Shown here: piece by piece, positions 25,093 through 28,974 of the stretch
Layout of the letters: every line of letters starts with the position of its first letter
Position numbering within the stretch: the first letter of the stretch is position 1
NCBI GenBank assembly: GCA_036271915.1
Contig: DATAZS010000008.1
Span: 1-34,869 of the forward strand
DNA: 34,869 bases
From: Polyangia bacterium
GTDB lineage: Bacteria; Myxococcota_A; Polyangia; Fen-1088
Direction of reading: 5' to 3'
The notes under the pieces: generated by a model
Seen by the model: the letters and a program-made list of their open reading frames with translations, nothing else
Told to the model about the DNA's origin: nothing
Database searches by the model: none
Translations under genes and position numbers: made by a program

Positions 25093-27537
25093 TCAGCCGA
25101 CGGTCTTGATGGCGCGCTGCGCGTCCCGGAGGAACGCCTCGCCGCGCTCCCAGGTCTTCGAGATCGTGTAGGTCGTGGCGCCGGCTTTCTCGCTCTTCTC
25201 GAGCAGGTTCGCGCCGTACTCGTCCTTGCACGCCTGGCCGAGCTCGTCCTCGAGCCACGAGAGCGAACCGGACGGGCCGTCGATCAGGTACTTCGTGACG
25301 TCGAGCCCCAACACGACGATCGCCCCGACGGCGACGGCCATCCCCGCGACGGCGAAGGCCGGCGCGGCGGCCGCGATGAAGGCGGCGCCCATCGCCGTCT
25401 CGGTCGCGCCGAGCGCCGCGAAGCCGCCGGTGAGCGCGCCGATGCCGACGCTGCCCACCGCGGCGCTGCCGCTGCTCATCAGCACGTAGCCCTTGAACAC
25501 GAGGAGGCCGTGGGTCGGACCGGTCTCGGCGTCGGCCTCGACGAGGATGCTCATGCCCTCGCGCACGTTGAAGAAGCCCTCGAGGCCGGCGCCGACGGGC
25601 CGGAGCGCGAGCTCGCCCGCCTCGCCCAGCGCGCGCCGCACGAGCTTGTGCTTCACGAACTCGGACGCGGACGAGACGGCGTCGATCGACTGCACCGCGT
25701 TCTGGCCGAGGCGCCCGTAGACGAGCACGTTGTCCTTGGTGCGGAGATCCTCGCTCGCGGTCCAGAGGCCGAGCCCGAAGCCGGCGGCGCTGCCGAACGC
25801 GCCGATGCGTCGCGGGATGCTGTGTTCGGTCAGCTTGGGGACGGTGACCTCGATGGTCGGCTTCGAGCGCACGAGGTCGTGGGCCCACGCGGACCTGCCG
25901 CTCGACGGCATCGGCGACCGGCCGAAGCGGAGCTCGCCGATCGCCTTTCCCTTCTTCGTCTGCACCGTCACCGTGCCGGCGGCGAAGTCGACGTGCATCT
26001 TGCCGCCGAACTCGCTCGCGTAGTCGACGGTGGGCACGTTGCCCGCGCGCGCGAGCTTCGTGAACTTGCGCAGGTCGCGACGGAGGACCTCGGCGGCTTG
26101 ATGCGCCGTGGCGAGCCTCTCGCGCGACAAGATGTGCGACGCGTCGTTGAACAAGAAGTCGAAGCTGCCACCGCCCTTGTCGAACGCGGTCGTGAACCAG
26201 AGCACGTAGGGAGCGAAATTGGGGATCTTGGATTCTTCGATGTGATCGGTCAGCGGGACGCCGAGCGCGGCGGCCATCGAGACGTAGCGGTAGTGCAGGT
26301 CGTCAACGTCGTCGGGCGTGCACGCCGGCGTCCGCGCGCCGAGGTCGCGCAGCACGGCGTCCCACGGCGCGAACTTCTCGAAGAACCCGCGGACGAGGAC
26401 CTCCAAGTCGCCCGCTTGCTTCTCGAGCAGCTTCTGCACGTGGTGCGTAGATGAGCGCCAGGGCCGCGTCTCCGGATGGTCCTGTGAGAACCTGCGAAGA
26501 TCGAACCGCCGCTTCGCGCGGTCGACGTCGATCACGTCCATCGGCCGATGCGCGTTCGGGTGCTCGCCGACTTCGGGGTGCTCGGCCTGGATGGTCCGAC
26601 CGGCGGCGAGCCACGGCTCGTTTCGCAGGCTCGACGTCGGCAGCGCGTCGTAGAATAGGCGGCGCTCGACGCCGGCGTTCGCGCACTTGTAGGTGTACGC
26701 GGTGTACTCGGCGTTGACCGGTGCCGACGTGTACAGCGCGAGGTCGCCCGCGAGCGGCGTCTCCTTCGCGCCGGTCCGCACCATCTCGTCGCCGAGCGCG
26801 AAGATCGCGTCGCTCCGCGCGGCCTGCTGGCGGATGTCGAGGTAGCCGCCGACGAGGAGCTCCGCGACGCGCAGCGCGTCGAGCGCGGGCCGGCGCGCGA
26901 GCAGGAAGCGCCCCTCGCCCATGCCGAACGTGTCGTAGCCGAGGCTCGCCTTCCAGCGGTCGTCCGACGTGAGGTATCCCGCGGGCTCGTCTCGCTCGAT
27001 GGCCTCGAGCAGCCACCCGAGCCGCGCGTCGTTCGCGTCGCCGAGGCCGAAGTGCTTCTGTGGATCCCGGTCGAACAGCTCGGCCGGCCGGTTCACGAAC
27101 GTGAGCGTGACGCCGTGGAAGCGGAACACATCCATCGACTTCCTGCGGTCGTCGAGCGCGGCAGCGAAGACGCCTTCGTCGGTCGTCCAGAAGAGCTCGT
27201 AGGCGACGCCAGGCTCGAAGTCGCAGAGGCGCTTCGGCTCGGGCTTCGGCGTCGCGGCGCCGACCTCGGCGTCTCGGATGAGCACGAGCTCGCCGGTGTC
27301 CGACGTGCGGGCGAGGCGCACGTCGTCCTGCCCGGGGGTCCACACCATCACATAGGCGTCCTTCAACGGCACGAGCGACATCGTGTCGAGCGCCGCCGCG
27401 AGCCACTCCCCGGGCCGCCACTTGTCCTTCGGCTTCGGCCGGTCGACGAACGGGAGCTCGAGCAGCGCGAGGTGGAGGCGCGGCTCGACGAGCACGCTGC
27501 GCCGCTCGCACGCGACGGGCGTCGGTTTAGGCGCCAT
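25093..27537 (-). CDS. Large protein of unknown function (814 aa) with a C-terminal Gly/Ala-rich membrane hairpin
   Basis: Uninterrupted 814-aa ORF with G/C-rich third positions and no N-terminal signal peptide. Residues about 684-745 are GSAAVGSVGIGALTGGFAALGATETAMGAAFIAAAAPAFAVAGMAVAVGAIVVLGL. The start overlaps the upstream LysM gene by 11 nt. I recognise no catalytic motif. Confidence 0.8.
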   Translation of the reverse strand: MAPKPTPVACERRSVLVEPRLHLALLELPFVDRPKPKDKWRPGEWLAAALDTMSLVPLKDAYVMVWTPGQDDVRLARTSDTGELVLIRDAEVGAATPKPEPKRLCDFEPGVAYELFWTTDEGVFAAALDDRRKSMDVFRFHGVTLTFVNRPAELFDRDPQKHFGLGDANDARLGWLLEAIERDEPAGYLTSDDRWKASLGYDTFGMGEGRFLLARRPALDALRVAELLVGGYLDIRQQAARSDAIFALGDEMVRTGAKETPLAGDLALYTSAPVNAEYTAYTYKCANAGVERRLFYDALPTSSLRNEPWLAAGRTIQAEHPEVGEHPNAHRPMDVIDVDRAKRRFDLRRFSQDHPETRPWRSSTHHVQKLLEKQAGDLEVLVRGFFEKFAPWDAVLRDLGARTPACTPDDVDDLHYRYVSMAAALGVPLTDHIEESKIPNFAPYVLWFTTAFDKGGGSFDFLFNDASHILSRERLATAHQAAEVLRRDLRKFTKLARAGNVPTVDYASEFGGKMHVDFAAGTVTVQTKKGKAIGELRFGRSPMPSSGRSAWAHDLVRSKPTIEVTVPKLTEHSIPRRIGAFGSAAGFGLGLWTASEDLRTKDNVLVYGRLGQNAVQSIDAVSSASEFVKHKLVRRALGEAGELALRPVGAGLEGFFNVREGMSILVEADAETGPTHGLLVFKGYVLMSSGSAAVGSVGIGALTGGFAALGATETAMGAAFIAAAAPAFAVAGMAVAVGAIVVLGLDVTKYLIDGPSGSLSWLEDELGQACKDEYGANLLEKSEKAGATTYTISKTWERGEAFLRDAQRAIKTVG

Positions 27538-28168
27538 GGTCGCTCTCGAGCCGCTTCGCGAGCGCAGGAGTGAGGTCCGAGACAGGCAGCTTGCGCGCGC
27601 GTTGGTAGGCGCGGAGGGCGCGCCGCGTGCGCGGCCCGATTACGCCGTCGATCGGCCCGGGGTCGTAGCCGAGGTGCTGCAAGCGCGCCTGCACCCCGGC
27701 GGGGATGGCCTCGTCGGTCCCGGGATCCCACGCGGGGTCGAGGTGCGCGAGGTGGAGGTGTCGCTTCAGGTGGCCGATCTCGAGCTGGAGGTCGGTCAGG
27801 TTCATCGGCACGTCGGCCTCGATCGACCCGTCGCCCGGCGTGGTGCCGCGGCGCTCGAAGCCGGGGGCAGAGAGGCGATAGGGCATGTCGGCGAACGGCG
27901 TCCCTGCGTCGTCCTGAAACACCAGATGAAGCTTGCGGCGCTGCCGCTTCACGACGAACGCGTGATCCGCTCCGGTCGCGATCGGCACCTGCTTCACCTC
28001 CTTGTCGGGGATGGTGATGCGGTCGCCTGGCTTGATGACATCGGGGTTCGGCCTGCGGCGCTTGAACGCGGCGTTCTCGGGGTGGTCGTAGATCGCGTGG
28101 AAGTCCGCGAACCCGTAGCGGTGTGCGATGGACGCCAGGCACTCGCCCTGAGCGACGGTGTGCTTCAT
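27527..28168 (-). CDS. LysM plus PG_binding_1 (double peptidoglycan-binding) protein, no signal peptide (213 aa)
   Basis: The N-terminal LysM is HTVAQGECLASIAHRYGFADFHAIYDHPENAAFKRRRPNPDVIKPGDRITIP. The C-terminal PG_binding_1-like block is VQARLQHLGYDPGPIDGVIGPRTRRALRAYQRARKL. ATG 28168 overlaps the upstream stop as ATGA. Confidence 0.8.
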   Translation of the reverse strand: MKHTVAQGECLASIAHRYGFADFHAIYDHPENAAFKRRRPNPDVIKPGDRITIPDKEVKQVPIATGADHAFVVKRQRRKLHLVFQDDAGTPFADMPYRLSAPGFERRGTTPGDGSIEADVPMNLTDLQLEIGHLKRHLHLAHLDPAWDPGTDEAIPAGVQARLQHLGYDPGPIDGVIGPRTRRALRAYQRARKLPVSDLTPALAKRLESDHGA

Positions 28169-28974
28169 CGGCGCGCCCTCCAGTCGGGGCCATGCAGGCG
28201 CGGGAACGTGATCTTGCACGTGCCGGGGTCGATGCCATCGACCCGCGCGCGGCCCTGTCCGTCGAGCTCGCCGTCATAGATCGAACCGTTCGGCAGCGTG
28301 AGGCGGAAGGCCTCGAACGGGACGGGCTGCGGCGGTGACGCGTCGTCGACGAGAGAGACGGACACCCAGGTGCGCACCCGCGTCGGGAGCGGCGTCGCCT
28401 CGTCCGTCGCGGGTTGCCTGGCTGCTCCTACCGGTCGATGGAGCGCGAGCGCGAGGACGCGCCGCGCGGCGATGGCGCGGGCCACACCGCCCGCCACGTC
28501 GCCGTCGCTCCACTGCGTGACGTCGGCAGTCGTGAGGCGCGCCAACGCGCGTCGCATGACCCGAAGGGCCCCGACGTCCGCCAAGGAAGCGCGAACCCAC
28601 GCGGACGCGCGCTGCTCGGTCGAGAGGTCGAGCGGCTCGTCCGCGCCCGTCTCCTCTCGCACGCTCAACTGCCCCGAGGACCACACGAGCACGTCGCGCA
28701 CGAGCGCAGCGTATCCAGATCGCGGGCGCGCGCGACGCAGAAAAGCGAGGCGTTCGTCTCGTGCGTAGACGTCGCTCCGAGCTTCCGGCGCTCGACGACC
28801 GCCGCCGCTTCGGCGCGCGCACGCGGACGATGCGCCTCCCGAGGCCGCGGCGGTGCTCGTCCTGCTGCGCGAGCAAGTAGGACGCTCTGGGTGACTCGCG
28901 GCGGGAGGATCGGGGCCGACGCGACGAGCTCGTCGCCCGGCCGACGGTGCGGCCGTGTCGACGGCTATTCCCAC
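28165..28974 (-). CDS. Hypothetical protein; start uncertain (180-269 aa)
   Basis: Coding signal is strong from about 28700 down to the stop at 28165. That stretch reads ...VLVWSSGQLSVREETGADEPLDLSTEQRASAWV... and ends in FEAFRLTLPNGSIYDGELDGQGRARVDGIDPGTCKITFP. The only in-frame starts are GTG 28974, which overlaps the LamG gene by 10 nt, and GTG 28701. Between them codon bias is poor in this frame. Confidence 0.5.
   Translation of the reverse strand: MGIAVDTAAPSAGRRARRVGPDPPAASHPERPTCSRSRTSTAAASGGASSACARRSGGGRRAPEARSDVYARDERLAFLRRARPRSGYAALVRDVLVWSSGQLSVREETGADEPLDLSTEQRASAWVRASLADVGALRVMRRALARLTTADVTQWSDGDVAGGVARAIAARRVLALALHRPVGAARQPATDEATPLPTRVRTWVSVSLVDDASPPQPVPFEAFRLTLPNGSIYDGELDGQGRARVDGIDPGTCKITFPRLHGPDWRARR

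Follow-up and report, generated by a model that had tools for sequence, protein, structure and literature searches.

The locus described here raises the question of what is encoded by three chained genes, in which a small protein with two peptidoglycan-binding domains and no signal peptide stands directly ahead of a large protein of a rare, uncharacterised family. The three open reading frames (ORFs), called A, B and C, lie on the minus strand of a 34,869-nucleotide stretch from a Polyangia bacterium (GenBank assembly GCA_036271915.1, contig DATAZS010000008.1, positions 1 to 34,869). This stretch is referred to as the window, and its G+C content is about 70%. All positions are those of the window, and homologous loci are given by their L numbers. 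The preferred answer, to which a probability of roughly 60% was assigned, is that A-B-C forms an orphan effector cassette of a type VI secretion system (T6SS), with A and B as two small loading proteins and C as their cargo. This reading was based on the neighbourhoods of homologues, on fusions of the C-terminal domain of A to VgrG, on the polymorphic cargo genes found after B, and on published experiments with LysM accessory proteins. The first-pass annotation of the window had proposed the module as a candidate for an undescribed envelope-targeting system. That description was not upheld, as the module is better explained as an orphan set of cargo genes belonging to a secretion system already known, with a type of accessory protein described in 2023.

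Gene coupling, variable cargo and linkage to the T6SS

Gene B (27527-28168, minus strand) encodes 213 aa without a signal peptide and was assigned three domains with Pfam, a PDB profile search, 34 full-length homologues and 46 genome loci. A LysM-like domain occupied residues 3-54 (28007-28162), a beta-sandwich about residues 73-130 (27779-27952), and PG_binding_1 about residues 153-208 (27545-27712). The last was recognised by Pfam with an E value of 6e-12, and its profile matches in PDB were 6tci, 4lpq and 4fet at E 1e-8 to 1e-9. For LysM, the Pfam match of the single sequence (E 0.0028) was below the cut-off. The 34-member profile of the family matched solved LysM domains over residues 3-58, the best being that of the tail tube initiator 9g8s_T (E 8e-5), and SafA (7r1l) was matched at E 3e-4. 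All homologues of B began 2-4 residues ahead of the LysM motif H-x-V-x-QGECL, and ATG 28168 is therefore, judging from the aligned sequences, the true start of B, with no signal peptide before LysM. The assignment of B as a LysM and PG_binding_1 protein without an export signal was borne out, and B did not prove to be an ordinary exported partner of a wall hydrolase with a mis-called start.

About 35 full-length relatives of B (207-237 aa) were obtained with a word-indexed search, and the genome scan gave the 46 loci. Within Myxococcota, the family was found in Sorangium cellulosum So ce56, Myxococcus, Archangium, Pyxidicoccus and metagenome-assembled genomes (MAGs) of Polyangiales. Cultured carriers of B cassettes included So ce56 (L031, with the B homologue at about 9.2817-9.2824 Mb of NC_010162.1), Archangium minus Cbm 6 and Myxococcus sp. 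RHSTA-1-4. Beyond this phylum, members occurred in Acidobacteriota, Planctomycetota, Methylomirabilota, Nitrospirota, Burkholderiales, Bacteriovoracaceae and Fibrobacteraceae. B is regarded as a candidate T6SS accessory protein, either an adaptor or a co-effector.

The three minus-strand genes were joined at both borders exactly as first described. The stop codon TGA of A (28167-28165) overlaps the ATG of B (28168-28166), which gives the ATGA read directly from the sequence at 28165-28168. The ATG of C is located at 27537, 11 nt upstream of the end of the TAA of B (27529-27527), implying translational coupling of B and C through this overlap (27527-27537). An identical 11-nt overlap between B and the C-family gene was observed in L009, L010 and L011. 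The junction was a 4-nt overlap in L049 and an 11-nt gap in L058. At four loci of the C family, the window included, the next gene begins 11 nt before the stop codon of B and reads MA.., and the C-terminus of B was HGC in five of eight aligned members and HGA in the window. Since the sequence of the B/C junction is itself conserved, it suggests selection for translational coupling.

The genes that follow B were highly variable. An ORF of at least 100 aa stood directly after B in 56 of 59 cassettes, with gaps from -64 to +220 nt. The 58 downstream proteins (57 cargo ORFs and C of the window) fell into about 33 clusters without detectable similarity, and the cargo N-termini (first 250 residues) fell into 32. 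No common N-terminal delivery domain was detectable; HMMs (hidden Markov models) of the C domains matched members of the C family only. The Pfam domains recognised among the cargo were Peptidase_M23 in five proteins, PLD in three, Amidase_3 in two, and Amidase_2, PAD, acyltransferase and M10 in one each. These are typical activities of T6SS toxins that act in the periplasm. At least 20 of the roughly 33 clusters had no known domain. A small conserved gene followed by a variable toxin gene is characteristic of adaptor or accessory proteins, not of immunity proteins. A role of B or A in immunity was also rejected, since both stay conserved whereas the cargo does not.

Parts of B were also observed at the cargo side of the junction. 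In several loci, an ORF downstream of B opened with a "half-B", consisting of the beta-sandwich and PG_binding_1, and PG_binding_1 was present in 2 of 41 cargo proteins by Pfam. Moreover, a short ORF of 160-190 aa started within about 60 nt after B in L014, L028, L032, L036, L043, L046, L047, L048, L052 and L053, and at least those of L043, L046 and L053 matched B over its second half. This short ORF may be a separate accessory gene or the N-terminal part of a split cargo gene.

The linkage to T6SS genes that had been suspected for homologues was found in part of the family. VgrG proximity was scored with locally built and iterated HMMs in a 10-kb radius around B at the 46 genome loci, and VgrG was present in 10 of them. 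The order was sometimes tssG-clpV-vgrG-(PAAR)-A-B-cargo, and TssG and/or ClpV were also present in five of the ten (L022, L033, L042, L046 and L053). In L003, the order was tssF-tssG-clpV-...-vgrG-PAAR-A-type gene (73 aa)-B-cargo (552 aa)-...-FHA/DUF4123, and the 716-aa protein of this locus was VgrG (TIGR03361, E 2.5e-200). L002 contained B, an M23 cargo, a Phage_GPD (VgrG) protein and a PAAR protein, and DUF4123 genes were located near B in L005, L006 and L007. Homologues of B were positioned between vgrG and the downstream toxin of a vgrG locus in L003, L033, L042, L046 and L053; the window has no vgrG. Among the upstream neighbours (111 proteins from 42 loci), the top recurrent sets were Phage_GPD and a ClpB/ClpV-type AAA set, with four members each. 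No sheath, tube or baseplate family, and no phage or extracellular contractile injection system (eCIS) family, was present among the 25 most recurrent families of these upstream neighbours. Most copies of B, including that of the window, were orphans in unrelated surroundings.

Two further arrangements were observed near VgrG. In L053 (6953-16122) and L042 (1255-13214), clpV and a vgrG carrying a fused A-domain were followed at once by a row of several B copies, each of which had a downstream gene of its own; the row in L053 comprised three full copies and one half copy. The arrangement looks like a stack of effector cassettes. In L022 (7632-10633), which comes from a long-read MAG, the VgrG frame upstream of A and B was split into several overlapping frames, probably as a result of assembly frameshifts rather than of biology.

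Gene A was shorter than previously read. It had been started at GTG 28974, which gives 269 aa. The third-position GC in its frame climbs only from about 28750-28705, the in-frame starts after 28974 are the GTG codons at 28701, 28692 and 28686, and a 185-aa homologue (L010:2557-3114) aligns from residue 96 of the 269-aa reading. The start at 28974 was therefore considered unlikely, and by these sequence features A most likely begins at GTG 28701, with probably 178 aa (28165-28701). The corrected start leaves about 260 nt of non-coding DNA upstream. The protein consists of a variable N-terminal region of about 110 aa and a C-terminal beta-sandwich, called the A-domain. No significant relative of the N-terminal 112 residues was found among the fetched loci. 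The A-domain (28171-28383; HMM E 2.4e-33) accounts for the last 70 residues or so, in agreement with the beta-sandwich-like block first seen at the end of A, and resembles a transthyretin-like (TTR) or CarboxypepD_reg domain.

The A-domain was homologous to the middle domain of B (hhalign of A3 against A5: probability 92%, E 6.3e-7). It was encoded within 10 kb of B in 24 of the 46 genome loci. Small proteins with this domain immediately preceded B in L001, L003 and L007, and in L006 and L010 they followed the cargo gene. Furthermore, it formed the extreme C-terminus of the full-length VgrG adjoining B in L042, L046, L052 and L053, where the VgrG ORFs have 781-922 aa and the domain takes up their final 55-70 residues. 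A five-sequence profile of the domain gave weak PDB matches to residues 783-833 of 6sjl (E 0.027) and to the VgrG2b effector domain 6h56 (E 0.15), and Pfam CarboxypepD_reg was matched at E 0.0087 in two of the five members. The entry 6sjl is the VgrG1-Tle1 complex of enteroaggregative Escherichia coli (EAEC). From its adjacency to B, its fusions to VgrG, its homology to the middle domain of B and these weak matches, the A-domain appears to behave as a C-terminal, transthyretin-like extension of VgrG that can be encoded separately. No representative of A was found within 10 kb of B in 22 of the 46 loci, and A was not always present with C.

Gene C, a candidate cargo effector

Gene C (25093-27537, minus strand) encodes 814 aa and belongs to a rare uncharacterised family of candidate T6SS cargo effectors. 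When 1.84 billion representative proteins were scanned in full with HMMER, 47 relatives were obtained, mostly of 810-910 aa and with 20-38% identity. Word-indexed searches with the single sequence and with a 31-sequence profile retrieved only C itself, and scans of genome contigs and metagenome contigs with the family alignment confirmed no relative. C had no match in Pfam, NCBIfam or PHROG, and the sequence-profile search of PDB gave chance-level matches only (E up to 10). The first-pass annotation had named no motif in C, and no match to a characterised housekeeping family was found.

With the 47-sequence alignment, the AlphaFold2 (AF2) model of C reached a predicted local distance difference test score (pLDDT) of 73.5 and a predicted template modelling score (pTM) of 0.75, and it was excellent for residues 20-470. 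The single-sequence AlphaFold model was unusable (pLDDT 35). A Foldseek search with the whole AF2 model against PDB and BFVD returned nothing at E <= 0.001, and the top PDB match, Ptx2 (9qpv), was at chance level (E 0.12, probability 0.21, TM 0.15). The model begins with an alpha/beta domain (residues 20-215; 26893-27480; pLDDT about 90), in which R77, G82 and W117 are invariant, and continues with an alpha-helical domain (residues 216-500; 26038-26892) with conserved Y281, C285, H326-P327, D346 and K454. These are followed by a small beta region (residues 503-575) and by long helices, among them a Gly/Ala-rich amphipathic segment (residues 575-600, IGAFGSAAGFGLGLW; 25738-25815), which is conserved in the family according to its consensus, hydropathy and the conservation of P575 and G582.

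Near the C-terminus, Kyte-Doolittle hydropathy indicated a hydrophobic double-helix hairpin (residues 691-754; 25276-25467), which is predicted to be a membrane-insertion element. Both helices (691-711 and 713-754) were present in 13 of 13 family members examined. The hairpin had been placed at the very end of C, but about 60 soluble residues follow it, with a helical tail at 760-813 in the AF2 model. No hydrophobic segment was found at the N-terminus, in agreement with the stated lack of a signal peptide. The AF2 confidence was below 50 across most of residues 605-739.

The column conservation of the family included, besides invariant P327 and K454 and the invariant residues of the alpha/beta domain, the conserved residues C285, H326, D346, E653, N657 and E773. 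A Cys-His-Asp triad of C285, H326 and D346 was judged unlikely, because three to four of 39 members have Ala or Val in place of C285, neither H326 nor D346 is invariant, and an all-helical structure is predicted for the region.

Several properties of C were those of a T6SS cargo effector. It has no Sec or Tat signal, and B stood directly upstream of the C-family gene wherever DNA was available, in six of six contexts (the window, L009, L010, L011, L049 and L058). In addition, vgrG was adjacent in L049, where it is divergent and accompanied by DUF2169, a Tox-PAAR-like toxin and TsiV, and it was nearby in L009, where it starts about 5 kb away. In L010, B was truncated and a 185-aa A-like gene followed C, whereas the L058 copy was an orphan on a 131-kb contig. 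Among the three genes, co-conservation was seen for B with C and for A with B.

No conserved immunity partner was found upstream or downstream of C across the six contexts. The gene after C was convergent in the window, in L049 and after the homologue P0090; in L010 it was A-like, in L011 it encoded a kinase, and in L058 it encoded an unrelated protein rich in Cys. Overall, a downstream gene was either missing, convergent or unrelated. The convergent lipoprotein genes were tried as immunity candidates and rejected, as the 401-aa BNR-like protein of the window and the 286-aa FGE-sulfatase-like protein of L049 are unrelated. The protein in L058 (12573-13436), which follows the C homologue P0091, has 287 aa, is Cys-rich and carries a hydrophobic N-terminus. 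No relative of it was found in any other fetched locus, and a lineage-specific immunity protein is one possible identity. The missing immunity gene is atypical for an antibacterial pore-former; C may instead have an anti-eukaryotic target or a non-toxic function, or A or B may give protection.

Proposed mechanism, known systems and rival explanations

In the proposed mechanism, B would be made in the cytoplasm in stoichiometric coupling with C, would bind it, and would tether this cargo to the tip of the VgrG spike. A would provide a TTR-type beta-sandwich surface in trans where VgrG lacks one, and would thereby belong to the same loading interface. After firing, the hairpin of C would insert into the membrane of the target cell, which would become permeabilised or depolarised.

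The closest known proteins were the LysM accessories of T6SS toxins. LysM and PG_binding_1 were among six domain families recurring in vgrG loci, either stand-alone between vgrG and the toxin gene or fused, and Kalk_10460, a stand-alone LysM protein of Ketobacter alkanivorans, was needed for co-immunoprecipitation of VgrG and effector (PMC10673891). Like B, the accessories of Wang et al. 2023 (Commun Biol 6:1195) are small, have no signal peptide, carry LysM and/or PG_binding_1 and are encoded directly upstream of the toxin gene. They were proposed to bridge VgrG and effector; vgrG is also located upstream in homologues of B, and the same domains occur both stand-alone and fused. This twofold occurrence was seen here as the A-domain on the C-terminus of VgrG (four loci) and as the half-B at cargo starts. 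The two sets differ in that B joins LysM, a beta-sandwich and PG_binding_1 in 213 aa and is accompanied by the separate A. Furthermore, PG_binding_1 was reported there only from gamma-proteobacterial vgrG loci, whereas the B family is spread over Myxococcota, Acidobacteriota, Planctomycetota and others. The B of the window also lies outside a vgrG locus, and the comparison with Kalk_10460 was made by description.

A similar docking element has been reported for Tae17 of Acinetobacter baumannii, whose Ig-like and LysM N-terminus binds the C-terminal region of VgrG17, with the modelled contact on a TTR domain (PMC11796386). The likeness lies in a small beta-sandwich plus LysM as a VgrG-docking element, and in a TTR-type beta-sandwich at the modelled interface. 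Tae17 carries this module fused to the toxin; here it is split over A and B, with C as a third polypeptide, and the two were likened by description. Compared with the TTR extensions of VgrG (6sjl, and VgrG2b in 6h56), the A-domain is also a beta-sandwich of about 70 aa and is located at the C-terminus of VgrG in four loci. The difference is that the A-domain of the window is encoded apart from VgrG, behind a variable N-terminal region of 110 aa, and that the sequence likeness was marginal. In Myxococcus xanthus, the T6SS effector TsxE (MXAN_5572) has LysM and an amidohydrolase and is encoded downstream of vgrG2, and its authors noted that effectors need not be linked to vgrG (PMC5801462). The use of a LysM module by a myxobacterial T6SS effector is the common point. 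In TsxE, LysM and an enzymatic toxin form one protein, with the cognate immunity gene next to it downstream, whereas here LysM belongs to a separate protein and no immunity gene is evident.

For C itself, the nearest likeness was to the membrane-depolarising T6SS toxins VasX, Tke5 and Ptx2 (BTH_I2691), which are delivered with a separately encoded accessory. These toxins have 800-1100 aa and no signal peptide, and they combine an N-terminal alpha/beta domain with a helical scaffold and, near the C-terminus, a hydrophobic helical region for which AlphaFold models are poor. In Ptx2, of the VasX family, a MIX alpha/beta domain and a helical scaffold were described, with a buried transmembrane domain that was misplaced by AlphaFold (bioRxiv 10.1101/2025.04.30.651342). 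C differs in having no sequence relationship to these toxins, no MIX domain and no VasX-type model match; its accessory is not DUF4123, and no immunity gene was found. C belongs neither to the VasX family nor to another toxin family described so far, and its shared layout with Ptx2 is a resemblance of architecture, not homology.

Several results weigh against an orphan T6SS cassette with a membrane-active cargo. At 36 of the 46 genome loci with B, no VgrG was located within 10 kb, and the whole 34.9-kb metagenomic contig has no T6SS gene, so that the secretion machine is assumed. Solved TTR domains of VgrG are matched only weakly by the A-domain (E 0.027 and 0.15). A role of C as a membrane toxin was drawn from hydropathy and architecture, with no significant fold match, and the conserved C285, H326 and D346 would also be compatible with an enzymatic activity. 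The absence of a conserved immunity partner across the six C-family contexts belongs with these points.

Part of this evidence would also suit a module that has nothing to do with the T6SS, with C as a resident inner-membrane protein held by its hairpin and A and B as peptidoglycan-binding partners, for example in wall remodelling or tethering. The window without T6SS genes, the 36 loci without a nearby vgrG, the lack of an immunity gene alongside C, and the housekeeping flanks of the window (MoxR/BatA/BatB, a two-component system and a ClC channel) are all in line with such an endogenous function. It was nevertheless considered improbable, as A and B have no signal peptide and so would be unable to reach peptidoglycan on their own, and as the A-domain is fused to VgrG in four loci. 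Moreover, the cargo after B is hyper-variable and toxin-like, which is the signature of polymorphic effectors, and orphan effector cassettes far from vgrG are recognised in T6SS genomes (PMC5801462). A more serious competitor, although an unlikely one, keeps delivery by the T6SS and makes B a co-secreted co-effector, instead of or besides an adaptor, whose LysM and PG_binding_1 would hold the cargo at the target envelope. Both wall-binding domains are well conserved, the identified cargo domains all act on the envelope, and several downstream ORFs open with their own beta-sandwich and PG_binding_1 half; the precise role of these LysM and PG_binding_1 domains was left open in PMC10673891. Against this, the roles of LysM shown by experiment are the bridging of VgrG and effector and the binding of VgrG in Tae17, the closest solved LysM match of B is a structural tail tube initiator and not a wall hydrolase, and B is kept with cargo of no obvious wall substrate (PAD, acyltransferase).

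The first-pass annotation had also pointed to lysis-type, phage-derived or other contractile injection systems beside an effector or adaptor of the T6SS, and only the latter part was supported. The match of the B-family LysM profile to a phage tail tube initiator (9g8s_T, E 8e-5) would fit LysM proteins that serve as baseplate or tube-initiator parts, and the PHROG matches were endolysin families. These PHROG and PDB matches covered the wall-binding modules of B only, with no catalytic lysis domain by Pfam, and A and C had no PHROG match. Beyond the wall-binding modules of B, the features of a phage endolysin or lysis cassette were not found. In addition, BFVD contained no structural relative of C, sheath, tube and baseplate were not among the 25 most recurrent upstream families of the 42 loci, and the spikes adjoining B scored as T6SS VgrG (TIGR03361) and stood beside tssF, tssG and clpV. 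An origin in an eCIS, a phage tail or a lysis system was therefore regarded as very improbable.

Within the preferred T6SS cassette reading, a wider proposal was made more tentatively and given less than even odds. A and B may form an uncharacterised split loading module that spans phyla and marks a large class of polymorphic T6SS effectors in Myxococcota, Acidobacteriota, Planctomycetota and further little-studied phyla, and C may be a structurally new membrane-active toxin without a dedicated immunity gene. The latter could be explained, for example, by a non-kin or eukaryotic membrane as the target, or by B or A keeping C inert in the producer. What is new here is the composite LysM/beta-sandwich/PG_binding_1 accessory, its free-standing VgrG-type partner, the spread of the accessory over little-studied phyla, and a cargo with a new fold for which no immunity gene is evident. 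Should A and B prove to be a loading module, they could be used as a genomic marker for T6SS effectors, like MIX, FIX, RIX and DUF4123, in phyla from which hardly any have been described; even in this small survey, the genes after B represent about 33 unrelated families, most of them without a known domain. With C, the few T6SS toxins that target membranes would gain a new fold, and the missing adjacent immunity gene raises the question of self-protection in the producer or of the true target. Furthermore, a C-terminal domain of VgrG split off as a free gene would be a test case for the evolution of spike-effector specificity. Current views of the T6SS are not overturned by these results; a mechanism described in 2023-2024 is extended to new taxa and cargo.

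Surroundings of the module in the window

No VgrG, PAAR, ClpV, TssG or DUF4123 gene was detected in the 35-kb window, and the earlier statement that it holds no sheath, tube, baseplate or secretion genes agreed with this result. A scan for promoters and terminators and an RNA fold upstream of A gave no signal beyond shuffled controls. Downstream of the module lies the convergent gene of the BNR-like lipoprotein (401 aa), followed by a MoxR/DUF58/BatA/BatB operon. This operon is of the aerotolerance type (16597-23726, minus strand) and encodes a MoxR AAA_3 ATPase, a DUF58-like protein and the VWA/TPR proteins BatA and BatB. A two-component system and a ClC channel gene are located beyond it, and all of these are ordinary housekeeping genes.

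Directly upstream of A, a 351-aa lipoprotein-like protein with a Gly/Ser/Thr-rich linker is encoded on the minus strand (28965-30020). It had no Pfam match and matched phrog_11772, a family of unknown function, at E 2.8e-11. The stop codon of this gene would overlap a start of A at 28974, and the corrected start of A leaves a gap of about 260 nt between them. Further upstream, 1.7 kb from the module, four paralogous units of about 1.1-1.45 kb, with 62-93% identity, are arrayed in tandem over 30678-34869 on the minus strand. The proteins of this array had no match in Pfam, and the G+C content falls to about 63% in this region. The ORFs of the array are located at 30678-31220 (180 aa, Cys-rich, with a lipoprotein-type signal), at 32110-33201, at 33203-34084, and from 34534 to the end of the window.

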